DNA of 64,000 bases from Atribacterota bacterium (GCA_040767965.1 JAXGNR010000006.1:1-64000), one strand, 5' to 3'; positions 8,325 through 34,613 are shown, counted from the stretch's first letter. Made by a program: numbers and translations. Notes: a model not told the origin generated them from the letters alone.

Positions 8325-9209
8325 TTATAAGCCACTTGCTTCTTCCTTTTTCCCAAGCAAACCTTGGGGACGAAATAGTAAGAACGCAATTATAAGCAGG
8401 TAAACAATGGCATCTTTGTATAATGATGAAATATAACTGGCACTGAAAACTTGAAAAACTCCAAGTATTAATCCACCAAGCAATGCACCGGGAACATGGC
8501 TGAATGATCCTATTATACAGGCACCAAAACCCATAAATCCCAAATTGGACAACACAGTACCAACTACAAAGATGGGCGCAATAAGCATTCCGGCAATACC
8601 TGCCAATATTGCACTATAGGCAAAAGTAAAGGAAACAGCCTGGTTTGATTCAATCCCCATCAGGGAAGCAGTATCTTTATCCTGGGCTACAGCTCGCAAT
8701 ACTTTTCCCAAAGTAGTCTTTTGAAAAATGTAGTACTGTATAAGTAGAAGAATTAAAGTTAAAACAATAATATAAATATTCTGATAGGGAATAGTAACTC
8801 CACCGACTGATAAAAGTTTTTGGCCAAAAGGACCATCTAGCCCCATATCATATGGACCCCAAATAATCAATGCCAGGTTTCCCAAAAGCATACTTAGGGC
8901 TAATAAAGCAACGAGTTTAGTTCGTACATGAGAATTTACTAAAGGACGATAAAATATCCTTTCACAAAGCATACCGAATAAAGCCATAACAACTATCATA
9001 CCTGCAAAAGCAGGGAAAGCAGGCCAACCAAATGATCTAACAAAAGAAGCTCCATAAACAAAAGCTCCTACCATAACAAAGGCACCTTGGGCAAGATTAA
9101 CAACTGCTACTGCATTCCAGATCAAGCTATATCCTAATGCTATTAACCCATAAACGCAACCAAGAGCCAATCCGGAAACTATTTGTTGAATTATAACTGC
9201 AATATCCAT
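8325..9209 (-). CDS. livH: Branched-chain amino acid-type ABC transporter permease
   Basis: GLIALGYSL, VNLAQG, GKVLRAVAQD, RPQGLLG; start moved to ATG 9209 behind GAGGAG. Confidence 0.93.
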   Translation of the reverse strand: MDIAVIIQQIVSGLALGCVYGLIALGYSLIWNAVAVVNLAQGAFVMVGAFVYGASFVRSFGWPAFPAFAGMIVVMALFGMLCERIFYRPLVNSHVRTKLVALLALSMLLGNLALIIWGPYDMGLDGPFGQKLLSVGGVTIPYQNIYIIVLTLILLLIQYYIFQKTTLGKVLRAVAQDKDTASLMGIESNQAVSFTFAYSAILAGIAGMLIAPIFVVGTVLSNLGFMGFGACIIGSFSHVPGALLGGLILGVFQVFSASYISSLYKDAIVYLLIIAFLLFRPQGLLGKKEEASGL

Positions 9210-11172: not shown

Positions 11173-12345
11173 ATGAAAACAAACATTAAAAGAAGGAAAT
11201 TGGGCAAAACAGGATTGATGGTATCAGAACTTAGCCTTGGCGCAATGAATTTACGATTATTAAAAAGCTTTGCTGAAGCCGAAGAAATGGTGAGTTTTGT
11301 TCTTGATCAGGGGATAAACCTTATTGATACCGCAAGAGCATACAAGGGAGAAATCGCACCAGGAATAACCCTGGAAAGCGAAGATATAGTAGGAAAGGTA
11401 ATTTCACAAAAAAATAATCTAGACGAGCCTATAGTCGTTATTACCAAAGGACATGCTTATACTATTCCTGAAATGGAAGAAGATCTAACTACAAGTCTAA
11501 AAACTTTACAAGTCACCGGAAAAGGCAATCTAAAAATTGGGGAAAACGATATCAAATTAATATACCTGATACATGGCCTCAGTGATGAAAGATGGACAAC
11601 AATCAAAGAATCTGGTGTGCTTGATGAATTGCAAAAATTAAAAAAAGAAGGGGTTATTAATTACATTGGATTTTCCAGCCATTATCCATTTGTTAAAGAA
11701 GTAAAAGAAGCAGTTGATCTGGGAATTTTTGATGTCGTAGAGCTGCCTTACAATATCTTTAACCGTACTTTTGGAGAAAACGGTGAATTGAATCTCTTTA
11801 AATATATCTATGGAAAAAATATTGGCATAATCAATATGAAAGCCTTTAATGGTAATGGAATGATTCCTCTTTTCCCTATAATAAAAGAATATGTTTCGAT
11901 TGATTATCAGGCCATGTTGCGGTTTTGTCTTTCAAATCCATACATTTCTACAGTAGATGCTGGTACAAAATATCCAAAAGAATTTTCTTCAGATATGCAG
12001 GTAGCAACCGGCAGCAGGTATACTGAACAGGAATTAATAGAAATGAGAAAAGAGGCTGACAAAGTAGCTCCACACCTGCAAAACATTTGTCGAAAATGTA
12101 TGCATTGTCAGGAAAAATTTACCTGCCCTAATGAAATTGATTTTCCAGAAATACTTTCCTTATATAACCATTATACTTTTCTTACCAGGGAAAACAAAGA
12201 TACAACTATGGTTATAAATAAATATAATCTACTTAGTAAAAATGGAGATGATTGTATAGAGTGCGGTGAATGCCTGCCGTGGTGTGAATACAAGTTAAAC
12301 ATCCCTGGTCTATTAAAAAAAGCACATGAAGTTTTAGGCAAATAA
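11173..12345 (+). CDS. Aldo/keto reductase with C-terminal Fe-S domain
   Basis: RRKLGKTGLMVSELSLG, IDTARAY, IGFSSH; CRKCMHC...CP and CIECGECLPWC. Confidence 0.9.
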   Translation: MKTNIKRRKLGKTGLMVSELSLGAMNLRLLKSFAEAEEMVSFVLDQGINLIDTARAYKGEIAPGITLESEDIVGKVISQKNNLDEPIVVITKGHAYTIPEMEEDLTTSLKTLQVTGKGNLKIGENDIKLIYLIHGLSDERWTTIKESGVLDELQKLKKEGVINYIGFSSHYPFVKEVKEAVDLGIFDVVELPYNIFNRTFGENGELNLFKYIYGKNIGIINMKAFNGNGMIPLFPIIKEYVSIDYQAMLRFCLSNPYISTVDAGTKYPKEFSSDMQVATGSRYTEQELIEMRKEADKVAPHLQNICRKCMHCQEKFTCPNEIDFPEILSLYNHYTFLTRENKDTTMVINKYNLLSKNGDDCIECGECLPWCEYKLNIPGLLKKAHEVLGK

Positions 12346-20954: not shown

Positions 20955-22148
20955 CTAGTTACCTTTACCTCTGCCGGTTACTGGTATTACTCTTTCAAGA
21001 ATCCCATTCCTAACCCCATATAATTTCTCATGGACATTGATAGTACAGGTACTGTTATTAGGAATAATCTCCAATCTATCTCCAAGATGGAGTCTTGGTT
21101 TGCCAGGGTTCATGTAGTAAATATGAGCACTTTCTGCACTTAAATTTGCTGCCCGCAAATCTGGTCTTCCTTTAACAATGCCGAAGCTGGGCAATAAAGT
21201 TCCTTTATAGTTCCAGTAATAGTCCGGTTCATTAATAGCAGCCATCAAGTAATCCGGACAAAAAGCTTTATATCCTGCATCAATCATAAACCAATCCGGA
21301 TGGGTGGTACTCATTACTGTTACCAGCATACTTAAAGCGCAATCTTCAATTTTATTGCCACCATGTTTCCAATAAACTAAACTGCCGATAACAAAATTGC
21401 CGGGATGAAGTTCATTGACCTCAGGAAATTTACCTTCCTTTAGGTATTTACATGTATAAGGATATTGGGGTGAAGCGCCCACAGAAACATCATCTAAAAT
21501 CATTCCTATCTCCTGAAATTTCTTTGCAAGATTAGACATAATCTCAAGAGTTTTATAAGCGCTGGTATCAAGGGCTTTTTCAGTAGGTTCAACTCCCATT
21601 TCATGGGCATAAATACCAGCTATTTTAATATTGGGAAGTTGGGAGGCTTTCTTCCCTAATTCTAAGGCTTCCTCGTCAGTAGTAACACCATGCCTTTGAG
21701 AACCACCTACTATTATACTGGTGTCTATTTTTATGTTTAAAGGGACTTCTCTATCCACTTGTGCTGCAATCCTGGAAATCTGTTCTGCCTGTTCGTACAT
21801 ATCTATTACAATACTTATTTTGACATCTTTATTTAAAAGTATCCTTCTGAGGGTTTCACCTTTATGGGCTCCATAGTAGCCCGGGTGGGCAATTTTAATA
21901 TCTTTTATTCCTTCATTTACCATGCTTTCAGCCTGGGCAACTGGTCCTACTTCTACACCACAGGCACCTGCTGCAATTTGCATTCTGGCTATTTCAGCAC
22001 TTTCATGAATTTTAATATGCGGTCTTAAGCGTACGCCTGCTTCTTTAGCAAGACTGGACATTCTGTTTATATTTGCCTCCAGTTTATTAAGGTCTAAAAG
22101 TAATGATGGGGTATCTATGGTCGGATAGGGGATTTTATTTTTTGACAT
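20955..22148 (-). CDS. Fold-type III PLP enzyme, D-serine dehydratase / D-threonine aldolase (DSD1) family
   Basis: IDTPSLLLDL, LRPHIKIH (PLP Lys), ELHPGNF, IDAGYKA, GDRLEIIPN; start at ATG 22148 behind GGAGG. Confidence 0.85.
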   Translation of the reverse strand: MSKNKIPYPTIDTPSLLLDLNKLEANINRMSSLAKEAGVRLRPHIKIHESAEIARMQIAAGACGVEVGPVAQAESMVNEGIKDIKIAHPGYYGAHKGETLRRILLNKDVKISIVIDMYEQAEQISRIAAQVDREVPLNIKIDTSIIVGGSQRHGVTTDEEALELGKKASQLPNIKIAGIYAHEMGVEPTEKALDTSAYKTLEIMSNLAKKFQEIGMILDDVSVGASPQYPYTCKYLKEGKFPEVNELHPGNFVIGSLVYWKHGGNKIEDCALSMLVTVMSTTHPDWFMIDAGYKAFCPDYLMAAINEPDYYWNYKGTLLPSFGIVKGRPDLRAANLSAESAHIYYMNPGKPRLHLGDRLEIIPNNSTCTINVHEKLYGVRNGILERVIPVTGRGKGN

Positions 22149-22405
22149 TAGAATATTTTCCTCCTTATTAATTGAACGCATTTATCATTAATAGCATAAT
22201 GAAATTCTAGCAATTTATTTTATAATTAATTTGGCTGCTAAAGAAACTATCTAAATAATTTGATTTATATATTATTATTTGTCTAGTTTGATAAGATACC
22301 TGGCTAAAAAGTATCTATATTTGTTATTTATACCATCAATATTTTCGTATAAAAATTCAGAAATAAGGAGCTATAAAGTAGATAGTGTAAGAATGTAAAA
22401 TAAAA

Positions 22406-22822: not shown

Positions 22823-24084
22823 TCATGTAATATTTTTTTGATCTATACCAGAATATCTAGCATGAATTCCTAATTCCTGTTCAATCTGTAATAAACGATT
22901 ATATTTTGCATTTCTTTCACTTCTAACAGGTGAGCCACATTTAATTTGGTAAGCCCCTAATGCCACAGCTAAATCAGCAATAAAGTTATCATTTGTGTCA
23001 TTGGAACGCATAGAAACTGCTAATTTATAATTATTGTTTTTAGCCAATAATGCAGCGTCAAATGTTTCCATTAAAGTGCCAACCTGATTTATTTTTACTA
23101 ACAGACTATTGCATGCTTTTCCCTTAATTCCTTGGTAAATTCGAGAGCTATTTGTTGTAAATAGATCATCACCAACAATTTGTATGTTGTGTAAGTTTGA
23201 TGTTAGTAACGAAAATGATTCAAAATCATCTTCTTGAAATCCGTCTTCGATTAAAACCAAAGGATAATTTTTAGCTAATGAAATGTAATAATTAATCAAT
23301 TCATCTCTATTAATATTCTTTCCTGAAATTGTGTAACAATCATCTTTTTCGTTATACAATTCGTTTGCTGCAACATCCAGTCCAAGCGAGACCATACCAG
23401 AGTAACCAGCCTTTTCTATAGCTTTCAACAAAATATCAAAAGCCTCTTCATTACTCCTAATAGGAGGAGCATAGGCACCTCCTACATCTTGTAGAGATGT
23501 ATATTTGCTTTTCAAAATCAGTCCTAGGCAATAGTGAGTTTCTGAAAGGGCTTCTAGCGATTCCGAAAATTTTTCAAAACCATTCATTATAAGCATATAA
23601 TCTTCAAAATCTAGTTCCGAAGGAGAATATTTCCCACCTGCCAAAACAGTAGCTATCGGCATAGGAAGTCTGTTCATGATGATGCCACCAAGATATCTAT
23701 ACAAAGGTATATCACAAGAGTTACATGCGGCTTTGCAAATAGCTAAGGATGTTGCCAGAATAGCATTGCTACCTAAGTTACTCTTATCTTTTGTACCATC
23801 AAGATCAATTAATAAATTATCAATATATCTTTTTGATTCAATATTTCTTTTCCTATTAATTCTGGAGCAATAATGTTATTAATATTTTCTACAGCTTTTT
23901 TTACACCAAACCCTCTGAATCTATTCTCACCATCAAAAATTTCTCTTGCTTCATATTTCCCTTTTGAAGTTCCACTTGGGACAGAAGCTATCCCGCTTAT
24001 CCCACTATTAGTAATTACAGTTGCTTCAATTGTTGGAAGTCCATTACTATTCAATATTTCTCTAGCAAAAATATTTTTAATCAT
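22823..24084 (-). pseudogene. Enolase (phosphopyruvate hydratase) family paralogue with altered active site; one frameshift near 23830 (probably sequencing error)
   Basis: AREILNSNGLPTIE, VPSGTS, then shifted frame IDNLLIDLDGTKDKSNLGSNAIL continuing into 22823..23704 (DVAANE, IEDG, VGDDLF, LVKINQVG, RSERNAKYNRL). Confidence 0.88.
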
Positions 24085-24117
24085 CAATTTTTATACACCG
24101 ACTTTCTTTTTAATAAT

Positions 24118-25464
24118 TTATGGAATTATAATTACCCTCAAATTCATAACATTTGTTCCAGTATGACCAGTTATAATTACGTCTTTTAATTTAAGCAAAG
24201 CTTCTGAACTATTATGTTCGATTAAATATTTTGAAATATCTATCCCTAATTTTTTTGTTCTTTCTATTGTTTCTCCATCCACAATTCCTCCTGCAAAATC
24301 AGTTGGGCCATCTGTACCATCAGTATCAACAGAAATGCAAGAATAATTTTTTTTATTGCCCATTTTCTCAGCAAAAGCAAGAGCAAATTCCTGATTAGGA
24401 CCTCCATGACCTGAGATATTACCCACAGTAACCGTTGTCTCTCCTGCACTAATAATGGCAGCAGGATTAGAAAATGGCCTTTTGTATTTTATAATTTCTT
24501 TTGCAATACCTGCAAGACAAATCCCAACATCTTTAGCTTCTCCTTCGATATTTGTAGAAAGAATAATTGGTCTATATCCTAATTCATTAGCTTTTTGAGC
24601 TGCTGCCTCACAGGTACTAACAGGGCTACCAACAAAAATTATTTTTGAGTAAAATCCATCTAGGCTTTTTAATGTTTCTAGTTCTTTATCTTTTAAACTA
24701 TTTACCAAGTACGACTTAATTGATAAAGGTATTGTTTTCCATAAATTATATTTTTTTAGTATATCAATAGCATCTTGAAATGTAGAAGGATCCGGTAAAA
24801 CCATATCAGGCCATGGCATATCTTCAGGAGCAGTATCAAGAGTGAAGGTAATAACCTTTGCTGGGTGAGCATATTTCAATAAGCCACCCCCCTTTATTAA
24901 ACAAAGATGTTTTCTTACAGCATTGATTTCACTAATAATTGCTCCACTCTTTAATAATAAATCTGTTACTATCTGTAAATCCTCTAAATTGATATTTTTT
25001 GGTGGAAGAGCTGTTAAAGCAGAAGAGCCACCTGTAATTGCAGCTAGTATAATATCATTACTATCAGCTTCCTTTAATAATTTTAGAATTTTTTCTGCTC
25101 CTACAATACTATTCCTATCAGGCAGAGGATGTCCAGCCTCTATTACTTCTATTTTTTTTAATCTACGTTTATCACCATTCTTTACTACAGTAACCCCTTT
25201 ATAGATTAAATCTCCAAGCAATTCTTCTAACGCCTTTACTATAGAAAATGAACCCTTTCCAGTTCCCACTACAAAAATATTTCTTATTTTATTAATATCA
25301 TATTCTATTTCTGCTATTTTAAGTTTGTTGCCATCAATTTTTACCAAGTTGCATGTACCTTTTTCAGGATCTGCTTTTTCAATGCCTGATTTTATAATTT
25401 CCAGAGCAACACTTCTTAGTTTTTTTTGTCCTTGGGTTAAAAGTGTTGAAGAATTTTTTATCAC
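24118..25464 (-). CDS. Glycerate 2-kinase type II (DUF4147/MOFRL) family kinase, divergent
   Basis: GTGKG, AGHPLPD, ITGGSSAL, NAVRKHL..IKGG, GETTV, DTDGTDGPT, TGHTGTNV. Confidence 0.9.
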   Translation of the reverse strand: MIKNSSTLLTQGQKKLRSVALEIIKSGIEKADPEKGTCNLVKIDGNKLKIAEIEYDINKIRNIFVVGTGKGSFSIVKALEELLGDLIYKGVTVVKNGDKRRLKKIEVIEAGHPLPDRNSIVGAEKILKLLKEADSNDIILAAITGGSSALTALPPKNINLEDLQIVTDLLLKSGAIISEINAVRKHLCLIKGGGLLKYAHPAKVITFTLDTAPEDMPWPDMVLPDPSTFQDAIDILKKYNLWKTIPLSIKSYLVNSLKDKELETLKSLDGFYSKIIFVGSPVSTCEAAAQKANELGYRPIILSTNIEGEAKDVGICLAGIAKEIIKYKRPFSNPAAIISAGETTVTVGNISGHGGPNQEFALAFAEKMGNKKNYSCISVDTDGTDGPTDFAGGIVDGETIERTKKLGIDISKYLIEHNSSEALLKLKDVIITGHTGTNVMNLRVIIIP

Positions 25465-25543
25465 TTTATTTTTAACTCCCTGATTTTTTATTTTAGAAAT
25501 CTCTAATTATATTAAAATTATACATAACTTTTTATTGTTATTG

Positions 25544-26806
25544 TTATAGAAAAGATGGTACTAAATTATTATTTTTATCAAAGTTTATTGAATTTAATTC
25601 ATCAGCTATACTTAAGTTATTTCTTTTTTTTGCCTCATGATATAAAGCCACTGAAACACATATTTTTTCAAGAGAAAGAGTATTTTTAATCCAAACCAAT
25701 TTTAATTTGCTTATATCTACCGGTCCAATAGTATTAAGACATGCCTCTATGGCCTCTTTATCATTAGGAAAATGCATTGGTATTGCTGCACTCTCCGGAC
25801 CAGAGGCTGTGAGGGCATTTATATACATTTTTTTTAGATCCAATTTTTTTACCAATTTTTCTGTTGTGAAATCTGCCATTCCAATACCTAATCCATTCCC
25901 CATAGATTCTTTTGTAATATCTCTCACAAATAATCTCTTTACTTTTTGTTCAGAATGCCATCTGTTCATTATATCTCTATTTCTACCAATAACATTAAAA
26001 TCCATTCCACCGCCACTAATTTCTTTACCAATTTCATCAATTATTAAAATATCAATATTTTTAAATGGTATCTTTGGTAAATTATCTTTTGCTATCAGTA
26101 AAAGTTCTTTCTCCTTATCTATTATATTAGTTGGTTCTATGGCTTCAATTATCGAGGTTTGGTCATATCCATCTTCTACTATTGCCAATCCAAACAAAAT
26201 AGGAAGTTTTTCTATGACATTTTGGGCAACTATTTCAAGTAATTCTGGAAAACCGTAGTGAAGAGCATATTTATGATAATATTGAGCGCCAATATGTTTT
26301 CCCATACCGATAGCCATCATTTTACACAAACCACTCTCAATAGAACCCTTCCATTTAGTATGAGGCTTTATCCTGTTTACTACAATAATATGGTCTGCTT
26401 CTAAGGCAATTTTATCTATATATATTGACAGTCCTTCTTTGGTTTTAGCTATTTCTTTTACTTCCATTGTGGCCATAATAGGAACATCCATAGATTCTTC
26501 ACTAATACCATAATCTTGGAGTATTTTTATTTGCCCTTCAGCAGTTGCACCTCCATGACTACCCATAGCAGGAAAAATAAAAGGATTGGCATTTAGAGAT
26601 TTAATATATTTAATTAATATTTTTACTATCTTGTCTATATTATTAATCCCTCTACTTCCTGCTGTAATAGCAACTTTGTCACCAGGATTTATTTTTGTCT
26701 CAAGATTCAAATAGTCTAGTTCTGCCTTTATTTTGGAAGACAAATCTAAAATTGGTTTATTTACTAGCTCTTGATGTATCAATCCCATTTGTATATTTTT
26801 TAACAT
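25544..26806 (-). CDS. Lactate racemase (LarA N-terminal / DUF2088) domain protein
   Basis: AITAGSRGI, PAMGSHGGATAEGQ, VNRIKPHT, ESGLCKMMAIGMGK, GKEISGGGMD, GNGLGIGMAD. Confidence 0.8.
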   Translation of the reverse strand: MLKNIQMGLIHQELVNKPILDLSSKIKAELDYLNLETKINPGDKVAITAGSRGINNIDKIVKILIKYIKSLNANPFIFPAMGSHGGATAEGQIKILQDYGISEESMDVPIMATMEVKEIAKTKEGLSIYIDKIALEADHIIVVNRIKPHTKWKGSIESGLCKMMAIGMGKHIGAQYYHKYALHYGFPELLEIVAQNVIEKLPILFGLAIVEDGYDQTSIIEAIEPTNIIDKEKELLLIAKDNLPKIPFKNIDILIIDEIGKEISGGGMDFNVIGRNRDIMNRWHSEQKVKRLFVRDITKESMGNGLGIGMADFTTEKLVKKLDLKKMYINALTASGPESAAIPMHFPNDKEAIEACLNTIGPVDISKLKLVWIKNTLSLEKICVSVALYHEAKKRNNLSIADELNSINFDKNNNLVPSFL

Positions 26807-26899
26807 ATTTAAATTCCTTTTTAATTAAATATTTAATTATTTTATATTTATTGTATTGCTTAGCAAGCAATAAATCACTTTTAAGTTAAAGTAATCTTT

Positions 26900-28396
26900 T
26901 TATATTTTTCCTTTGTTTGCTATTTTTGTGGAAGTAATTAATACTAAAATAGACAAAATTATAAGCATTACAGATATTGTTCTAGTAAAAAATATTGACC
27001 AATCTCCACCACTAATAATTAACGAACGTCTAATTTGACTTTCTAACATTGGGCCTAGAATTAATCCTAATACTATAGGAGCCATTGGGAATTTTCCTCT
27101 AACCAATACATAACCAAAAAGTCCTAAAATTAAAGTCACCCATATATCGAAAAAATTATTCCGTAATGCATATGAACCAATTATGGAAAGAATAACTAAT
27201 AAAGGTGCTAAAAAATGTAAAGGTATTTTCAGTATTTGTACAAATACTCTAATTCCGAAATATTGAATTAACATCATGAAAATATTTGCCAATAAAATTA
27301 ATGTAAATAAACCAACGGCAAGATTTGGGTTTTTTGTAAAAAATTGAGGTCCAGGTTGCAATCCATGAATCATTAAGGCACCTAAAAGAACCGCAGTCGG
27401 ACTATCACCGGGAATACCTAAGGCTAGCAATGGAATTAAAGCTCCGCCGGTAACACCATTATTTGCTGCTTCAGAAGCAATAACTCCTTCTATATTTCCT
27501 TCACCAAATTCATTAGGATTTTTTGAAAATCTTTTTGCTTGATCATAAGCTAAAAATGAGCCAATATTTCCACCGGCTGCAGGTATCATACCAACGAATG
27601 TACCTATAATACTTGAACGAATTAAGTTGATTTTATTGTACCAAATTGAAGCTAACGTTGGTATTATTTTCATAGCATTTTCCCCTCTACCCACACTGAA
27701 CATTTGAACTTCATTCTGAGTTAAATTTTGTAATATTTGAGGAATTGCAAAAAATCCAATAAGTGCAGGCATAATACCTATTCCCCCCATAAGGTTTACA
27801 CTATTGAAAGTAAATCTAAGATTCCCAATTATTGGGTCAATGCCAATAACGGCTAGCCACAACCCAATCAATCCAGAAAATATGCCTTTAGCAATAGATT
27901 CTGCAGTAATTGAAGCAATAATTGTAAGCCCGAATAATGCTAAAGCTGCATACTCAGGTGGACCAAATCGTAAAGCAAATTTAGCAAGTTGCGGTGCAAC
28001 TGTAACCAATATTAACCAACTTATAAATCCTCCAAAAAAAGAAGCAGTTATCGCCCAACCTAAAGCTTGACTAGCTTTCCCCTTTTTAGCCATCGGATAA
28101 CCATCAAGGGTAGTAACAACAGAAGAAGGTGTTCCTGGAATATTTAAAAGAATTGCTGAAATTGCTCCTCCTGCTATCCCGCCAACGTAAACACCAATCA
28201 TCATGCCAATCGCTTGCACTTCAGGTAATGTAAATGTGACAGGAAGCAAAAGAGCAACACCCATCGTTGCTGTTAACCCTGGCATAGCACCAAATATTAA
28301 ACCCATAAATGTAGCTAAAAAAATACTCAATACATATATTGGGTTTAATAAAACATCAGTTACCATTTCTAAATAGGAAAATAATTGTATTTCCAT
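26900..28396 (-). CDS. tctA: Tripartite tricarboxylate transporter large permease
   Basis: GAMPGLTATMGVALL, ILLNIPGTP, DGYPMAKKG, SEAANN, LGIPGD, GLQPGP. Confidence 0.95.
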   Translation of the reverse strand: MEIQLFSYLEMVTDVLLNPIYVLSIFLATFMGLIFGAMPGLTATMGVALLLPVTFTLPEVQAIGMMIGVYVGGIAGGAISAILLNIPGTPSSVVTTLDGYPMAKKGKASQALGWAITASFFGGFISWLILVTVAPQLAKFALRFGPPEYAALALFGLTIIASITAESIAKGIFSGLIGLWLAVIGIDPIIGNLRFTFNSVNLMGGIGIMPALIGFFAIPQILQNLTQNEVQMFSVGRGENAMKIIPTLASIWYNKINLIRSSIIGTFVGMIPAAGGNIGSFLAYDQAKRFSKNPNEFGEGNIEGVIASEAANNGVTGGALIPLLALGIPGDSPTAVLLGALMIHGLQPGPQFFTKNPNLAVGLFTLILLANIFMMLIQYFGIRVFVQILKIPLHFLAPLLVILSIIGSYALRNNFFDIWVTLILGLFGYVLVRGKFPMAPIVLGLILGPMLESQIRRSLIISGGDWSIFFTRTISVMLIILSILVLITSTKIANKGKI

Positions 28397-28663
28397 CTTC
28401 TATATCCTTATTATTGTATTTATTTTTATAATTTTATATTTATTTTTTAATATTCAAGCTATATTAACAGTAAAATTTGAATTATTCTAGAGTTCATATG
28501 GTATGCAAATATGAATATATATCGATTTAGATTAGATCAAAATTATTACACTTAAATTGCCTTAATACTTAAATAAAATACAAGAAAATTATAGTTATCA
28601 ATATCTTTTTTATAGTAATAAATAAACAATTTTAGTAACTTTTTAAAATAATCATTTTTATTA

Positions 28664-29188
28664 TTATGGAAGTGGTACTGAAAAAATAGATTTAAATACG
28701 AAATTAATGCTTGAAATAATAATTAAAATCAAAATAAAGCTTTTAAATAAAAAAATTATTGTTAATTTGCTTTTAGGACATAACAATATAGAAGATCCCC
28801 ACATGAAAAACAAAGAAGAAACAACAAAACTTAATCTTTTCCACAAGCCAACATAAAGAACAATCAAAACTATAAATTCTATAGTTAGCACAGGTGTTTT
28901 GGGGAAAACATTCCAAACTAATTTAGCTAATTTTGATTTATTTTCTAGTTTTTTATCTAATTGATTATCATCTTTATTATTTATTTTATTTTTATATTGA
29001 GAAAAAAACAGTACACTATTGACTATAAGGATAGTTATAAAAATAAACATAGGGAATAACCATGGCCCCACACTACTCCGCTCTCCTGGCACTCTATATG
29101 TTGTTGCATTAAAAGCTATTATAGTAAAATATATCGCAAATATTGAAGTAATTAAAATAATTAATCTGGTTGCTACTTTTTCACTCAA
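28664..29188 (-). CDS. tctB: Tripartite tricarboxylate transporter small permease
   Basis: Four hydrophobic helices, VGPWLFP, C-terminal VPLP; between tctC and tctA; AAGGAG RBS with TTG start. Confidence 0.85.
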   Translation of the reverse strand: MSEKVATRLIILITSIFAIYFTIIAFNATTYRVPGERSSVGPWLFPMFIFITILIVNSVLFFSQYKNKINNKDDNQLDKKLENKSKLAKLVWNVFPKTPVLTIEFIVLIVLYVGLWKRLSFVVSSLFFMWGSSILLCPKSKLTIIFLFKSFILILIIISSINFVFKSIFSVPLP

Positions 29189-29213
29189 ATTAATTTAGAT
29201 CTCCTTTTTTATT

Positions 29214-29257
29214 TTTTAAAGGATACCATATTGTTAAAATGATGGTATCCTTTAAAA
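29214..29257 (-). terminator. Stem-loop between tctC and tctB
   Basis: TTTTAAAGGATACCAT / ATGGTATCCTTTAAAA 16-bp stem. Confidence 0.75.
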
Positions 29258-29282
29258 TTATCTTTGTAAATTCAATTAAAAA

Positions 29283-30260
29283 TTATAAAACTTCTTCAAT
29301 TATAGTCTTTAAAGATTGTTCTAAATCTTGTATAAATATATCCAACTCTTCACCTATAATAGGTTCGCTAATGATTCCCATGCTTTTCGCAAAATCCTGA
29401 AATTCTTCGTTTAAAATAGCTTTTTGGAATATTTCCCCTAATTTTGTTTTAACTTCTTCATCTAATCCTGCTGGGGCGGCAACAAAAGTTGATTGTACAG
29501 GTTCTCCATATGGAAAAACATTGTAACCTTTTTCTTTAAATGTAGGTACATCCGGGAAAAGATTCGTTCTTTCTTCTCTAAAAGTTGCTAATGGTATTAT
29601 TTCTCCTGACTCGAGCTGACTCCATGTTTCACCTGGTTTTAAAATTTGTGCTGCAATATGTCCACCTAATAAGCTGGCAAGGCATTTACTCCCCCCATCG
29701 AATGGGACATACCTTATTTCACTTTCTACACTTTTAGCCATACCAATTGCATCCATATGAGAAGTAGTTCCACTTCCAGAAGCACCAACTGTAAGAACTC
29801 CTGGGTTATTCTTAATATCTTCCATAAAATCTTCTATGTTTTTGTATTTTGAATCTGCCCTAACTGTAAGTAAATAAAAATCCTCAGACATTCTCGCTAT
29901 ATTGGTAAATTTATCAGTTCCCCAAGGAACCATTTTCTGTACTATCATACTTATTAGACTGCTTGAAGCAAGAGATACGGTGTAACCATCTGGTGCAGAT
30001 AATGTCATTTCTGTATTACCAACTACACTGCTAGCTCCTTCCCTATTAACAATTACTGTATCAACACCTTGGCTTTTTAAAATTGGTTGGAGTTTTCTCG
30101 CCATAACATCCGTGGATCCCCCTGGGGACCATGGGACAATAATTGTAATTGGCTTGCTTGGAAAATCACTCGCTATTACATTAAAAGTTGTAATTATACT
30201 TAACAAAAATACTAGACAAAGAAACATTCTTAATAAATAAATTAGATTCTTTTTAAACAT
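29283..30260 (-). CDS. tctC: Tripartite tricarboxylate transporter substrate-binding protein (Bug family)
   Basis: FPSKPITIIVPWSPGGSTD, PDGYT, VPFDGG, PDVPTFKEKG. Confidence 0.93.
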   Translation of the reverse strand: MFKKNLIYLLRMFLCLVFLLSIITTFNVIASDFPSKPITIIVPWSPGGSTDVMARKLQPILKSQGVDTVIVNREGASSVVGNTEMTLSAPDGYTVSLASSSLISMIVQKMVPWGTDKFTNIARMSEDFYLLTVRADSKYKNIEDFMEDIKNNPGVLTVGASGSGTTSHMDAIGMAKSVESEIRYVPFDGGSKCLASLLGGHIAAQILKPGETWSQLESGEIIPLATFREERTNLFPDVPTFKEKGYNVFPYGEPVQSTFVAAPAGLDEEVKTKLGEIFQKAILNEEFQDFAKSMGIISEPIIGEELDIFIQDLEQSLKTIIEEVL

Positions 30261-30555
30261 ATTATACCTCCATATTAAATACTATTTTTCAATTTTTTAT
30301 AAAAAACTGAAAAAGTTGAATTAGCTTCTATATTATAAACTTTTCACCTCCCTTTCTTTTGTTTTCCATTTAGAAGTGATTAATAATTAAAACATTTATT
30401 TTATTAAATTTAAATTTGAAGTATTACTTATTTTATTAAATTAATTTAAGATAATTAACATTGTTATTTAAAAAAATTTGTAACTGATGCTCAAAATTTT
30501 TAATACAAACAATAATTATGTAAATTAAATTATCGCAAAAAGATGTAATTTATTT

Positions 30556-31245
30556 TTAAAGAGTATATTCTTTTTTACCAGAAACAATCATTTTTTCTAT
30601 AAGCTCTAAAATTGCTTTTTTAAAATTGTTAAGATGACTATGCATTGCTACATTTGCTTCACTAGGCTTTTTACTTAATAATCCATCAAAGATTTGAATA
30701 ACTTCTTCTCTGCTAAGTTCAATTCTTCTTTTTGTAAAATGTGCGGTTAAAAGGCGAGCTCGGTCAATCTTGTTTCTATATGATTCAATGATAATTGATA
30801 TCTCTTTGTTTCCACACAAATCCCATATTGTTTTATGAAGTATAAGATCAATCTCATATAACAAAGAAATTTTCTCTCTTTTTTCACCTTTAAAATTATC
30901 AAGTTTGTTGTAGCATTTTTTTAATAAAGACATTTCGCTTGATATTGGATTAATATTCATAGCTGCTTTTTCAGTGGCATAAGGTTCTAAAAGTAATCTT
31001 ATTTCACATATATTTTAATATCCTCATAAGAAATAGGTTTTACAAAAGTTCCTATTTGTGGCTTAACAACTATAAGATTTTCACTTTCAAGTTTAGAAAT
31101 TGCATGTTTAATTGGTGCTCCTGCTTACATTAAATTTTTTTGGAAATAATTGTTTCTGATAATTTTTCACCAGGCATAATCTTTAATGTTATTATTTCTT
31201 TTAAAAGCTTTTAAAGATATCATCAGCAATTGTATTTCTGCTCAT
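30556..31245 (-). pseudogene. GntR family regulator (HTH + FCD) with several frameshifts
   Basis: MSRNTIADDIF at 31245, then MPGEKLSE...FNVSR, PIKHAISKLESENLIVVKPQIGTFV in shifting frames; ORF 30556..30960 is the FCD domain (LH...CGN...MHSHL). Confidence 0.85.
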
Positions 31246-31279
31246 TATTAAACACCAACAAAATATTTATTCTGATATA

Positions 31280-31305
31280 ATTCTAATATACTAGTATATT
31301 AGAAT
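31280..31305. promoter_or_regulatory. Perfect 26-bp palindrome, candidate GntR autoregulatory operator
   Basis: ATTCTAATATACT/AGTATATTAGAAT, abutting the -10 box of the gntR promoter. Confidence 0.75.
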
Positions 31306-31332
31306 ACTACTTTATTTTCATTCTGTTGTCAA
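31304..31332 (-). promoter_or_regulatory. Sigma70-type promoter of gntR
   Basis: TTGACA-17 nt-TAGTAT on minus strand. Confidence 0.6.
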
Positions 31333-31654: not shown

Positions 31655-32595
31655 TTATTCTATTTCAAAATAAAAATCAATCCTAGCTTTCTTCCGGCAT
31701 TCTTCGCTATTACAGTAGCTGAATTCCAGTTGGATCATTGGATGCAAAATATTAAATTCTTTCTCTAAAGTATTGTTAATTTTCTCTGATTTTTCAGCTT
31801 CACTTATTTTCATATCTTCTTTCAGCTTAATATGGCCTCAAAAAGAATTTTATCTTCATTTATCTGCCATATATGAATATGATGAAGATTATTTACATTT
31901 GGGATTAGTTCAATTTCGTTTTTTATTTTATTAATATCAATTTCTATTGGTACCCGTTCCATTAAAATCATAACACTTTGTTTTAATACCTCGATATCCT
32001 TACATAGAATATAAGATCCTATTATCACAGTTAAAATGGCATCAATGTAATATATTTTATAAAAATAGATTAAAATACCAGCAATTACAATTGTTAATGA
32101 ACTCAGGGTATCACTTAATAAATGTAAGTAAGCTGACCGAATATTTAAACTGTGCTGTGACTCAGGATGGAGGAGAAAAACACAAATCAAATCAGCAATC
32201 AACCCAAAAAAACCAACTCCGATCATTAAAGAAATGCTAATCTGCTGTGGATTCATTAAACGGAAATAAGACTCCCTGAAAAGAAAAAAAGCTATCACTA
32301 TAATGACAGAAGAATTAAATAAAGCAGCCAGTATCTCGGCTCTCTTATAGCCAAATGTCATTTTTAAATCAGGAGAACGCATACCAATTTTTCGTGCCAG
32401 ATAACTGATAAAAATAGCCATCCCATCACTAAAATTATGAAAAGCATCCGCGATTAAAGATAGACTACCGGCTAATATCCCTCCGATTATTTCCACTATA
32501 CAGATTAAAAAATTTAGAATAATGGCAAAAAATATTCTTCTATTATTAGAGTTATGCTGATGAATGTGATTATGCATTTCTTTTTCCTCAAGCAT
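31655..32595 (-). CDS. czcD: Cation diffusion facilitator (CzcD/ZitB-like), one frameshift near 31836
   Basis: His-rich N-term, DAFHNFSD, TFGYKRAEIL, LHLLSD, HHIHIW; shifted frame continues HIKLKEDMKISEAE...ILHPMIQLE to TAA at 31655. Confidence 0.88.
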
Positions 32596-32666
32596 TTTAG
32601 AAATTATTTAGCCGATAGCGCTTTCTTTATTTTTGTTCCAGTTAAAACCTTCTTAAATTATAATAA

Positions 32667-33644
32667 TTACTTTTTATTTATTTTTTCTTCACTGCGATCT
32701 GTTGCAACTGGCGGACTCACAGATAATGAAGATATTTCTTCATACATCGTAGGGTTCATTTCTACTTCCAAAGAAGCGAGCACCTGTTCTAACTGATCAA
32801 GATTTCTGGCTCCAATAATTGGAGCAGTAATTACAGGATTATACATTACCCATGCTACTGCCAGAGCAGCAGGATTAATATTTTTTTGCTCAGCATAATC
32901 TGCAAAATTCTCAGCAACTTTGTAATAGACAGAATCAGCATAACGATTAGCATACATTTTGTTTTCATTAATTCTGCCTTTGGCAGCTTCTTTCTCCTTA
33001 TATTTTCCTGTTAACATGCCTGCACCTAAGGGGCTGTAACTAATAACCCCGATATTTTCTTCTTTAGCTAAAGGCAATATCTCAACCTCTACTTGTCTTT
33101 TTATAAGACTATACATAGGTTGAATGCACTCAAAGCGAGCAAGTCCTTTCCTTTCAGAAATTCCCAATGCTTTTGCAATTTGCCAGGCAGACCAGTTGCT
33201 GACACCTAAATAAAGTATTTTGCCCTGTCTTTGTAAATCATCCAGGACAGATAAGGTTTCTTCAATAGCTGTATCTGGATCATAGATATGTAAAAAATAC
33301 AAATCAATATGATCAGTATTCAGTCTTTTTAAACTTTTTTCAATGGATTGTCTAATATGATATCTGGAAAGTCCTTTATCATTGATATTTTCACTCATCG
33401 GGCTTCCTGCTTTAGAAGTTAGCACAATTTCATCCCTGCAATTTGCGATGCACTTTCCCAATATTGTTTCTGATAAACCAAAGCTATACAAATCAGCTGT
33501 ATCAAAAAAATTTATACCAGCTTCACGACACCTGTTAAACATTTTAATTGATGTTTCTTCATCTGCTTCTTTTCCAAAAGTCATTGTTCCGAAACAAAGC
33601 TTAGAAACTTTCAATCCGGTTTTACCTAATATTCTATAATCCAT
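32667..33644 (-). CDS. Aldo/keto reductase
   Basis: LGKTGLKVSKLCFGTMTFG, FFDTADLY, SLKRLNTDHIDLY, GVSNW, YSPLGAGMLTGKY. Confidence 0.95.
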   Translation of the reverse strand: MDYRILGKTGLKVSKLCFGTMTFGKEADEETSIKMFNRCREAGINFFDTADLYSFGLSETILGKCIANCRDEIVLTSKAGSPMSENINDKGLSRYHIRQSIEKSLKRLNTDHIDLYFLHIYDPDTAIEETLSVLDDLQRQGKILYLGVSNWSAWQIAKALGISERKGLARFECIQPMYSLIKRQVEVEILPLAKEENIGVISYSPLGAGMLTGKYKEKEAAKGRINENKMYANRYADSVYYKVAENFADYAEQKNINPAALAVAWVMYNPVITAPIIGARNLDQLEQVLASLEVEMNPTMYEEISSLSVSPPVATDRSEEKINKK

Positions 33645-34123: not shown

Positions 34124-34613
34124 TTACCTCAACATAACATCCAGTATAGCCTGATCTGTAACAACCATTCCGGGATCACAGATATCACCTAAATTGTTAA
34201 ATAATTGTTTAAAATCAGGGCTGACTATTCCATCATTTTTATTAATAATTGCACCATGATAAGATAACAGCGCACTTTGTACTGCCCACCCGGCTGACAT
34301 GGCTAGCTTATAGGAACATCCCTCTTTGGCCCCATCGCAAATAATCCCTGAAACTGAACCAACCATATTGTAAAGAGAACCTAATATTTTATCTATTTTT
34401 CCACCTAAGAGATATACTACTCCTGCGCTTGCTCCGGTTCCTGCTGCTACCCCGCAACCACACATAGCAGATAGAGGTTTAGTATAGGATTTTATAAAAA
34501 ATGTAATAAGATTAGTTAATGCTAATGCTCTTAATAATTTTTCTAAAGAAATATGTTGCAGGCGATATCCCCTCTTTTAAAAGAGCAAGTAATATTTCTT
34601 CATTTTTTATCAT
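34124..34613 (-). pseudogene. YhaM/CdsB-like L-cysteine desulfidase (serine dehydratase alpha-like) with large internal deletion
   Basis: RBS AGGAG + MIKNEEILLALLKEGISPAT (family N-terminus, normally followed by GCTEP) joined out of frame to LLRALAL...LSAMCGC...GIICDGAKEGCSYK (C-terminus). Confidence 0.8.

Follow-up and report, generated by a model that had tools for sequence, protein, structure and literature searches.

The window, a 64,000-nt stretch of an Atribacterota bacterium genome (GCA_040767965.1, JAXGNR010000006.1:1-64000), contains a cassette on the minus strand at 22823-31305 in which a paralogue of enolase is placed beside a kinase gene, a LarA-fold gene, a TTT transporter and a regulator. 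The question raised by this locus is whether the enolase paralogue still dehydrates 2-phospho-D-glycerate or acts on a different phosphorylated acid.

Gene content and order

In the Pfam and NCBIfam domain scans, the genes are ordered gntR, tctC, tctB, tctA, LarA-fold gene, MOFRL kinase gene and enolase paralogue, and all seven are co-oriented. The three TTT components lie side by side: the solute-binding protein tctC (29283-30260; Pfam TctC, 146.9 bits), the small membrane subunit tctB (28664-29188; Pfam TctB, 41.9 bits) and the large membrane subunit tctA (26900-28396; Pfam TctA, 513 bits, full length). The gap between tctB and tctA is 268 nt long, AT-rich and non-coding. The LarA-fold protein, a presumed C2 racemase or epimerase, is encoded at 25544-26806 (NF052515, 516.6 bits; Pfam Lar_N, 36 bits). 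The class II glycerate-kinase-like MOFRL kinase, which has a GHGGPNQE motif, is encoded at 24118-25464 (DUF4147, 203 bits; MOFRL, 117 bits). These five genes are free of internal stops. The other two are pseudogenes: the enolase paralogue at 22823-24087 (separate ORFs match Enolase_N, at 95 bits, and Enolase_C, at 295 bits) and a GntR/FadR-type gene with HTH and FCD domains at 30556-31245 (Pfam FCD, 32 bits). The co-oriented, seven-gene order of the original prediction is therefore recovered with all of its genes, except that the enolase and gntR genes are broken reading frames.

A DSD1/BhcC-like PLP gene at 20955-22181 was considered as an eighth member and rejected. It lies 640 nt away from the cassette, the region's best promoter-like match (22511-22482) intervenes, and the gene is missing from the cassettes of three other loci (L011, L091 and L204).

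Residues and phylogeny of the enolase paralogue

The enolase paralogue belongs to a group of sequences referred to here as E-D, with residue positions in yeast numbering. In the window protein and the homologue tables, the metal ligands Asp246, Glu295 and Asp320 are retained, as are Lys345, Lys396, Arg374 and Ser375. These residues and the metal Ser (the second Ser of PSGxS) are invariant in the homologue alignment. The substitutions Gln167Glu and Glu168Asp are invariant in the clade. Glu is absent at position 211, with a one-residue change around GG(A). Residue 373, which is His in canonical enolase, is Met in the window protein and Met, Leu, Ile, Val, Gly or Ala among its E-D relatives, and residue 159 (His159) is Tyr, His or Phe. 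The altered enolase residues of the original prediction are present in the window protein and, when examined for conservation in homologues, the substitutions are kept across the E-D clade.

In the tree, all 37 E-D rows are on one side of a branch with an SH-aLRT of 98. The window enolase is 47% identical to the canonical enolase of its own genome. Genomes bearing E-D genes also contain a canonical enolase (682.5 bits in the source genome, G000; 442.8 bits for the second match in G086). Three E-D genes are present in G000. Two of them adjoin MOFRL kinases that differ from each other (40% identity), which argues for several substrates. The 2.3-Mb source genome contains seven enolase-family genes, four of which adjoin a kinase-family gene. 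The source-named E-D hosts include Desulfarculia, Desulfovibrio and Peptococcaceae.

Against TIGR01060 (cut-off, 300 bits), the C-terminal piece of the window protein scores 310.8 bits and the N-terminal piece 88.4 bits. The intact E-D relatives score 471.9 bits (P0002, the closest intact homologue), 409.7 bits (L091) and 390.2 bits (L011). Because they exceed this equivalog cut-off, annotation pipelines name the E-D proteins, like other family members, 'phosphopyruvate hydratase'. To our knowledge, a single function is usually ascribed to the enolase family proper. A metagenome scan with the E-D alignment matched generic enolase motifs at 80 loci, so most of these loci (74/80 by motif regex) carry the SHRS of canonical His373, with SERS in 5/80 and SLRS in 1/80. 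L091 is the only E-D cassette among the 80 loci.

The MOFRL kinase and its fusion to the enolase

The kinase consists of DUF4147 and MOFRL domains and contains both the GGxNQE and the DxDGxDG motif, the latter as DTDGTDG. Its best solved relative is PH0495 (PDB 1x3l, 340.6 bits); the score to TM1585 (PDB 2b8n) is 243.8 bits. PH0495 bears the same GGPNQE motif, and the available text of PMC2063504 counts it among the class II glycerate kinase structures. This is at odds with the original prediction, in which GGPNQE marked the loss of a glycerate-specific residue, and judged by its motifs the kinase is not visibly "altered". The kinase scores below the cut-offs of the NCBIfam glycerate 2-kinase equivalogs (237.5 vs 550 bits for NF041176; 176.4 vs 670 bits for NF040791), which is weak evidence because both models are lineage-specific.

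The kinase and the E-D enolase also occur as a single natural protein. P0252 is 908 aa long and joins DUF4147 and MOFRL domains (GRGGPNQE) to an E-D enolase. Full-length members of this fusion, 908-912 aa, are encoded on three contigs from three assemblies. Fusions of an APH kinase to an enolase also exist.

Recurrence in other bacteria

In L011, from a Desulfarculia MAG, the seven-gene order is identical and the flanks are made up of a transposase-like gene and unrelated genes. L091 and L204 contain the TTT genes, the kinase and the E-D enolase without the LarA-fold gene. Across the four recovered cassettes, the TTT transporter, the GGPNQE kinase and the E-D enolase are always present, and no other catabolic enzyme lies inside. 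The synteny predicted for the enolase variant therefore extends to the kinase (4/4) and not consistently to the LarA-fold gene (2/4), which is hard to reconcile with the core role that the latter had been given.

An additional E-D gene, in G077 (L201), lies alongside a TTT transporter, an MR/MLE enzyme and a true LarA, and the flanking ~8 kb on each side contain no MOFRL kinase. No sulfite exporter, reductase or dehydrogenase gene is found in the window cassette or among the larger ORFs scanned within ~10 kb at L011 and L091.

The LarA-fold protein and its predicted cofactor

The LarA-fold protein is a member of NF052515 ('NPN_iso_grp_22', nickel pincer cofactor-dependent isomerase, group 22), scoring well above the cut-off of 400 bits. 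Its AlphaFold model has a pLDDT of 89.9. In Foldseek, the best PDB folds for the model are of the LarA family (E 5e-12 to 2e-9, TM ~0.5), with a probability of 1.00 for 9q3j, 2yjg, 5huq and others. HMMER searches of PDB sequences with the protein and with its profile give no LarA match, and the protein is 13-15% identical to solved LarA structures. The relation to LarA is visible only by fold.

In LarA, His108 and His174 are catalytic, Lys184 is the tether and His200 is the Ni ligand (L. plantarum numbering; available text of PMC7583248). In an hhalign alignment with the true LarA of G077, which has a probability of only 0.55, these residues pair with His84, His149, Lys162 and His178. The four candidate residues have LarA-like spacing and are invariant in 22 homologues in this low-confidence alignment. 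LarA-superfamily enzymes racemise glycerate according to the available text of PMC11770544; no characterised member of group 22 is found there or in that of PMC7583248.

In the 98%-complete G000, no LarB, LarC or LarE scores above cut-off, and LarC is found in 0/22 genomes of the family. The Desulfarculia genome with L011 does have LarB and LarC. The absence of LarC from 12/27 genomes with NF052515 raised the possibility that NF052515 needs no nickel cofactor. This reading was dropped, since a genome without LarB and LarC also contains a true LarA with the four key residues. The LarA-fold gene was also rejected as a marker of the cassette: among loci of its relatives (42-56% identical), the kinase and enolase are present at only 1/80.

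Transporter and upstream region

The nearest solved structure to tctC scores only 126 bits, and the structure and relative search finds no close characterised relative. The tctA protein is 67% identical to that of L091. The solute-binding proteins are only 27-44% identical across the four cassettes, so these may not have one substrate in common.

A perfect palindrome at 31280-31305 (ATTCTAATATACT/AGTATATTAGAAT; two halves of 13 nt, 100% complementary, with no spacer) lies just upstream of the gntR start. It is a candidate operator for GntR, a role that we infer. It overlaps a sigma-70-like promoter site before gntR (31332-31304, minus strand; TTGACA-17-TAGTAT, 10/12 consensus positions). Promoter-like sites in the region number 55, against a shuffle mean of 62. 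Because they are no more common than in the shuffles, the site at 31304-31332 is rated as only a consensus match.

Decay of the window cassette

The enolase paralogue is cut into ORFs of 92 aa (N-terminal, 23809-24087) and 293 aa (C-terminal, 22823-23704), and the frame of the latter is open up to 23875. The alignment of P0002 runs in one frame as far as 23827 (residues 1-87) and in a second frame from 23848 on (residues 80-413), with 72-74% identity over the two frames. This split fits a single frame change near 23821-23827 (minus strand), where gat-at-at-t-gat stands in place of the Ile-Asp of homologues and leaves the paralogue without an intact reading frame. The lesion is a 2-nt change and, as we read it, is consistent with a duplication of AT.

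In gntR, only the FCD half (30556-30960) forms an ORF, and the HTH half is scattered over three frames by four frame changes from ~31215 to 31015. In tblastn, the intact GntR proteins of L091 and L011 align successively in frames 3, 2 and 1 of this region, and the start with a short FNVSRST stretch shows yet another arrangement. The single frame that joins HTH and FCD is intact in L011 and L091 but not in the window. Judged from its sequence, the window cassette is a relic, with a frameshifted enolase, a shattered repressor and a nickel-pincer cofactor that the genome is predicted not to make.

The breaks are improbable as assembly or sequencing errors in a cassette that is intact and functional in the organism. 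The assembly consists of 30 contigs and further genes in it are split (DctM and a MOFRL kinase in L006, and a serine dehydratase fragment at 34124-34465), as such errors would produce. They would have to account for four frame changes in ~200 nt of gntR and none in the adjoining 4.6 kb from tctC to the kinase, and the enolase lesion lies outside a homopolymer. Even if the breaks were errors, the LarA-fold enzyme would have no cofactor because LarB, LarC and LarE are absent. For this genome alone, the locus is a decaying accessory operon, and because the window copy is broken its value is that of a pointer to an uncharacterised enzyme pair. Part of the stretch is contained in 20 metagenome runs (best, 0.43 of sampled words), and no RNA run is among them.

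Proposed pathway and alternatives

The cassette is read here, tentatively and with not quite an even chance of being right, as a self-contained catabolic unit for a small 2-hydroxy-carboxylate, in which a kinase is followed by an E-D enolase whose chemistry is probably not that on 2-phospho-D-glycerate. The unit would be controlled by a GntR-type repressor. The acid would be taken up by the TTT transporter and inverted at C2 by the accessory LarA-fold enzyme, so that both stereoisomers could be used, and its 2-hydroxyl would be phosphorylated by the MOFRL kinase. The E-D enzyme would then abstract the C2 proton via the retained Lys345 on the likewise retained two-metal site and expel the C3 substituent. 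This would give phosphoenolpyruvate or a closely related enol-phosphate, which would enter central metabolism without further dedicated enzymes. This order of import, inversion, phosphorylation and enolase-type step follows the logic of the original prediction and is supported by the conserved synteny (L011, L091, L204), the natural MOFRL::enolase fusion and the conserved substitutions. Because the leaving-group apparatus of Glu211, His373 and Glu168 is replaced clade-wide, the true substrate is most likely another acid than ordinary 2-phospho-D-glycerate, one that resembles glycerate but has another C3 substituent or another configuration. Several points stand against this reading, among them the E-D gene of L201 with no MOFRL kinase nearby, the low identity of the solute-binding proteins and the GGPNQE motif that the kinase shares with PH0495. 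In addition, the invariant Glu/Asp pair could have taken the acid role, which would make E-D simply an enolase, and a self-contained cassette of three enzymes is exactly what a route from glycerate to PEP needs.

The last two points belong to the serious rival, rather unlikely as it is, that D/L-glycerate is imported, racemised, phosphorylated to 2-phospho-D-glycerate and dehydrated by a divergent but genuine enolase in which Glu167/Asp168 replaces the Glu211 acid. The kinase, with 340.6 bits and a shared GGPNQE to a class II glycerate kinase structure (PMC2063504, available text), agrees with this, as does the racemisation of glycerate in the LarA superfamily (PMC11770544, available text). 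The cassette would require no additional enzyme, and the E-D proteins exceed the TIGR01060 cut-off. Dedicated isozymes of lower glycolysis have a precedent in the Agrobacterium vitis tartrate operon, which has its own pyruvate kinase. The rival is opposed by the clade-wide loss of Glu211, the hydrophobic residue 373 and the Asp at 168. In yeast enolase, mutants of Glu168, Glu211 and His373 are reduced in dehydration by several orders of magnitude and keep C2 proton exchange. A second true enolase would also add little to genomes that already have a canonical one, and G000 contains two pairs of MOFRL kinase and E-D enolase.

Loss of the general acid Glu211 would also fit a leaving group that needs no protonation, as in a 3-substituted lactate that is converted to PEP by release of a non-hydroxyl group (3-sulfolactate with sulfite, isoserine with ammonia, or 3-mercaptolactate). 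This, the specific version given in the original prediction, is a distinctly unlikely reading, and the sequence data single out none of the three acids. For sulfolactate, a TTT importer is known, and Desulfarculia, Desulfovibrio and Peptococcaceae, groups capable of sulfite reduction, are among the hosts; the larger ORFs scanned of L011 and L091 and the window cassette contain no sulfite exporter, reductase or dehydrogenase, and the added negative charge at 167/168 would repel a sulfonate. The same acidic residues would suit the ammonium group of isoserine, but we know of neither isoserine nor mercaptolactate as an abundant environmental substrate. It is very unlikely that E-D only enolises and reprotonates a 2-phospho acid. 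In that role it would racemise or epimerise a 2-phospho-hydroxy-acid and pass the product on to the canonical enolase or to some other enzyme. Such an enzyme would keep the proton-abstraction and enolate-stabilising residues and dispense with those for the leaving group, as is seen. An alternative inversion step would be useful in two of the four cassettes because the LarA-fold gene is missing there; it would be redundant where that gene is present, and no second base is identified on the opposite face. The kinase-enolase fusion is compatible with elimination and racemisation alike.

Under the preferred reading, elimination from a phosphorylated acid other than 2-phospho-D-glycerate, the E-D proteins may be the first in the enolase family proper to catalyse anything other than the enolase reaction. 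Paired with or fused to the GGPNQE MOFRL kinases, they would form a two-step 'phosphorylate, then eliminate' route that leads directly from a 3-substituted or otherwise non-glycerate 2-hydroxy acid to PEP or a PEP analogue, a proposal to which we give somewhat less than an even chance. If true, it would exemplify a broader pattern, in which each divergent enolase paralogue works with a small-molecule kinase of its own; the APH-kinase::enolase fusions and the position of four of the seven enolase-family genes beside a kinase-family gene support such a pattern. The replaced leaving-group residues, conserved kinase partner, natural fusion and own transporter and regulator make E-D a well-defined candidate for new reactions of the enolase scaffold, and one that could be tested at low cost. 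In anaerobes of digesters, landfills and sediments, the route may be an unrecognised way for an environmental hydroxy-acid to reach PEP. Should E-D prove to be an ordinary enolase, it would still show that a textbook enzyme can shift its catalytic acid to a different position.

Comparison with known systems

A literature search, bounded short of the supplementary tables of PMC7583248 (LarAH group contexts), finds no paper on the E-D enolase clade or on the TTT/MOFRL/enolase cassette, in keeping with the claim that this layout is undescribed. The likeness to ComA (phosphosulfolactate synthase, PEP + sulfite) is only formal, in that the reverse reaction would yield PEP. No sequence relation to ComA is seen, the window protein is Enolase_N plus Enolase_C by Pfam, and nothing here points specifically to a sulfonate or sulfolactate substrate. 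The LarA superfamily, including the glycerate-racemising LarAHs (available text of PMC11770544 and PMC7583248), shares its fold with the LarA-fold protein, which NCBIfam places in group 22 of the NPN isomerases and in which the candidate counterparts of the key residues have LarA-like spacing. The LarA-fold protein differs in its low identity to solved LarA and in its genome, which is without larB, larC and larE.

The tartrate and glycerate routes with a TtuD-type MOFRL kinase (available text of PMC2063504), which end in glycerate kinase, enolase and pyruvate kinase, likewise lead from an imported hydroxy-acid through a MOFRL kinase to lower glycolysis; the cassette has no dehydrogenase or decarboxylase and has its own non-canonical enolase. 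The class II (MOFRL) glycerate 2-kinases PH0495 and TM1585 share DUF4147, MOFRL and DTDGTDG with the cassette kinase, and PH0495 also shares GGPNQE. The cassette kinase differs in falling under the equivalog cut-offs and in being always paired with or fused to E-D in the recovered loci. Canonical enolase (EC 4.2.1.11, TIGR01060) shares with E-D the two-domain fold and family, the three Mg ligands, Lys345, Lys396, Arg374, Ser375 and the loop Ser. E-D differs from it in Gln167Glu, Glu168Asp, the lack of Glu211, the altered residues 373 and 159 and its separate clade, and in its location, since the E-D genes lie in transporter and kinase cassettes whereas the canonical enolase lies elsewhere in the genome.

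Gene content of the cassette

All genes between 22823 and 31305 lie on the minus strand. The predicted seven-gene cassette is borne out by Pfam and NCBIfam matches, which recognise every member in the same orientation. These are a GntR/FadR-type regulator (gntR, with its FCD half as the sole ORF, 30556–30960), tctC (29283–30260), tctB (28664–29188), tctA (26900–28396), a LarA-fold protein of 420 aa (25544–26806), a MOFRL kinase (24118–25464) and an enolase-family gene in two ORFs (23809–24087 and 22823–23704). The LarA-fold protein matches Pfam Lar_N weakly (36 bits); its strong match, at 516.6 bits where the cut-off is 400 bits, is to NCBIfam NF052515 ("nickel pincer cofactor-dependent isomerase, group 22"). 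A perfect 26-nt palindrome (31280–31305) overlaps a promoter-like site ahead of gntR, and its end at 31305 is also the end coordinate of the original prediction. The gap between tctB and tctA is AT-rich, non-coding and 268 nt long (28397–28663); neither an ORF nor an inverted repeat turned up there. The counterpart in L011, a locus in a Desulfarculia MAG, is 17 nt (between the end of tctB at 8408 and the start of tctA at 8426).

The next gene downstream encodes a DSD1/BhcC-like PLP enzyme (20955–22181) and heads a peptide-transporter/amidohydrolase cluster. It was rejected as a cassette member, being 640 nt apart, with the region's best promoter-like match in between. Immediately upstream of the cassette, a CDF metal-efflux gene, with Co/Ni-type DmeF among its weaker matches, adjoins an aldo-keto reductase (31822–33644). 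A second aldo-keto reductase-like gene lies at 11173–12345. Nickel-pincer-dependent aldo-keto reductases were reported in 2026 (PMC13524815). A 113-aa ORF at 34124–34465 matches only the C-terminal part (147–260 of 260) of serine dehydratase alpha chain and is probably another gene fragment.

The enolase paralogue and its clade

Seven enolase-family genes of this genome score above the TIGR01060 cut-off (C5:208984, C5:114354, C10:95899, C10:10817, C6:22841, C11:51398 and C10:83946; C6:22841 is the gene in the window), and one of them is canonical (682.5 bits). His373 is missing from all six non-canonical copies and Glu211 from five of the six (yeast numbering). A kinase-family gene adjoins four of these paralogues, of APH type at P2 and of MOFRL type at P3, P5 and P6; an acetate-kinase-like gene lies near P4. 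Aligned to the canonical enolase of the same genome, the window enolase keeps Asp246, Glu295, Asp320, Lys345, Arg374, Ser375 and Lys396. It has His159 changed to Tyr, Gln167 to Glu, Glu168 to Asp and His373 to Met, and Glu211 is absent. The metal-binding Ser, the second Ser of PSGxS, is invariant in the homologue alignment. As the original prediction required, the substitutions are kept beyond this gene: LxFEDY, GGA and SxRSxxTxDxF are invariant or nearly so in 28 homologues with 48–73% identity.

Proteins with Gln167Glu, Glu168Asp, a hydrophobic residue at 373 and no Glu211 are here called E-D. Setting aside the protein of the window itself, the best 119 database matches comprise 65 proteins with the Glu-Asp pair but no DEGG, 52 canonical proteins and two that carry Gln-Glu and likewise lack DEGG. 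Clustered at 90% identity, the E-D proteins among these matches give at least 65 groups. A quick maximum-likelihood tree was built from 50 rows, which were picked from the best matches and grouped by motif; in it, the 37 E-D rows all lie on the same side of one branch (SH-aLRT 98). The clade is rare. Of the top 150 representatives at 50% identity, 11 belong to it, and it occurs in 2/86 genomes of the window's phylum and in 2/401 genomes sampled from the phylum that includes L011. In their sources, E-D proteins carry the name phosphopyruvate hydratase. By coordinate arithmetic, the stops flagged within the matches from L011 and from genome G077 are the genes' own stop codons. A third enolase subtype, "SERS" (metagenome loci L096 and L101, and protein P0053), has His373Glu and His159Leu and keeps Glu168 and Glu211. 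It adjoins MOFRL kinases in L096 and L101, and in L101 an NF052515-like gene also adjoins.

Gene order and fusions

L011 has all seven genes in the order seen in the window, next to a transposase-like gene. The metagenome locus L091 has the order gntR-tctC-tctB-tctA-kinase-enolase without the LarA-fold gene. Locus L204 of genome G376 also lacks this gene and has tctC, kinase-enolase, tctB-tctA and a second tctC. The transporter, kinase and E-D enolase are therefore present in all four recovered cassettes and the LarA-fold gene in two; no further catabolic enzyme was found inside any of the four. Equal-sized contigs and shared sources suggest that the database proteins P0002/P0122 and P0102/P0144 may be further linked pairs. 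Among relatives of the LarA-fold protein (42–56% identical), a kinase and an enolase lie alongside in only 1 of 80 loci, so the LarA-fold family is general and no more than an accessory in the cassette.

In the second-best representative, P0252 (908 aa), an E-D enolase comes after DUF4147 and MOFRL (GRGGPNQE). Three full-length proteins (908–912 aa) belong to its 90% cluster, each on a contig of its own, and these contigs have different sources. In another representative, P0341 (745 aa), an APH-family kinase is fused to a second non-canonical enolase type, with Gln-Asp at 167/168 and Gly at 373. The adjacent APH-kinase/enolase pair of this genome (C5:113300–115640, or L005:8303–10638) mirrors this fusion, and APH kinase with enolase is a second kinase/enolase-paralogue pairing. 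In locus L201 of the relative G077, a different E-D gene occurs with a TTT system, an MR/MLE enzyme and a true LarA. No MOFRL kinase was found near it, which counts against strict kinase dependence.

The kinase and the LarA-fold protein

The best solved relatives of the kinase are PH0495 (1x3l, 340.6 bits), reportedly assayed as a 2-phosphoglycerate-forming kinase, and TM1585 (2b8n, 243.8 bits); in the alignment the former has GGPNQE and the latter GGRNQE. GGPNQE occurs in the kinases of all four cassettes, in line with its predicted co-occurrence with the enolase variant, and also in the L101 kinase. GGRNQE is the motif of the L096 kinase and of this genome's second MOFRL kinase. PH0495 and TM1585 are both included as class II glycerate kinase structures in PMC2063504. 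On that listing, the proposal that GGPNQE marks a lost glycerate-specific residue does not hold, as PH0495 carries the same motif.

The AlphaFold model of the LarA-fold protein has a pLDDT of 89.9, and its best PDB matches all belong to the LarA family (probability 1.00, E 5e-12 to 2e-9, TM ~0.5, 13–15% identity). In a low-confidence profile alignment to true LarA, the invariant His84, His149, Lys162 and His178 pair with LarA His108, His174, Lys184 and His200 at similar spacing. Five intact NF052515 genes are present in the genome, in acid-sugar clusters that also contain TRAP or TTT transporters, aldolases and 2-hydroxy-acid dehydrogenases; this setting fits a C2 epimerase/racemase role for the LarA-fold protein. 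Glycerate racemisation by the LarA superfamily is described in PMC11770544.

No LarB, LarC or LarE scores above cut-off in this genome (98% complete), which has a true LarA homologue (L207:13918–15312). LarC is present in 48/86 genomes of the phylum and in 0/22 of the window's family, of which 9/22 nevertheless have NF052515. The G077 LarA keeps all four key residues, and that genome is without LarB and LarC. L207 (C10:98600–117400) is a tetronate-type cluster. Besides the true LarA homologue and an NF052515 gene, it encodes a DUF1537-like kinase (SBD_N and NBD_C), PdxA, and one class II and one HpcH aldolase.

Probable decay of the window copy

P0002 is the closest intact homologue. Its residues 1–87 align with the window enolase as far as 23827 in one frame, and the remainder aligns in another. 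The DNA at the break is gat-at-at-t-gat, where homologues have Ile-Asp; we read this as a probable 2-nt duplication. The HTH half of gntR occupies three frames; the frame shifts four times from ~31215 to ~31015. Across the 4.6 kb that separate gntR from the enolase, the five genes carry no internal stops. This uneven spread of lesions argues for real decay of the cassette over random assembly error. The assembly has 30 contigs, totals 2.33 Mb and is 98% complete. The L006 cluster around P3 (C10:86500–106400) also looks decayed, with DctM split into 99 and 319 aa, a MOFRL kinase split into 346 and 133 aa, and one MR/MLE gene without its N-terminal domain.

Possible reactions of the cassette

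The conserved core, the kinase-enolase fusion and the self-contained layout support a scheme in which a substrate would be taken up, optionally inverted at C2, phosphorylated at the 2-O position and passed to an enolase-type step whose product would require no further dedicated enzyme. Our tentative preference, held at somewhat short of an even chance, is that this last step is a non-glycerate or non-canonical elimination. An ordinary dehydration of 2-phosphoglycerate, with plain glycerate as substrate, seems unlikely. It would account for the glycerate-kinase-like partner and for the scores of E-D proteins on the enolase equivalog model (390–472 bits, above cut-off); the invariant Glu/Asp pair may also replace Glu211. 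However, three dehydration-critical residues are lost clade-wide, and mutation of these residues in yeast enolase cripples dehydration. A canonical enolase also coexists in the same genomes, and one small genome has several kinase/enolase pairs.

Within the preferred non-glycerate or non-canonical elimination, the substrates originally named, 3-sulfolactate, isoserine and 3-mercaptolactate, are distinctly improbable. A scan of the larger ORFs near the L011 and L091 cassettes found no sulfite-handling genes, and the extra negative charge in the E-D active site argues against sulfolactate in particular. A racemase-type reaction of the E-D protein itself is given the least weight and is very unlikely.

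A literature search of article full texts returned nothing on the E-D clade or the cassette. The original prediction is a good lead at the family level, and the window's own copy is apparently a relic. E-D is a clade of the enolase family whose active site is rebuilt and which has a kinase dedicated to it.
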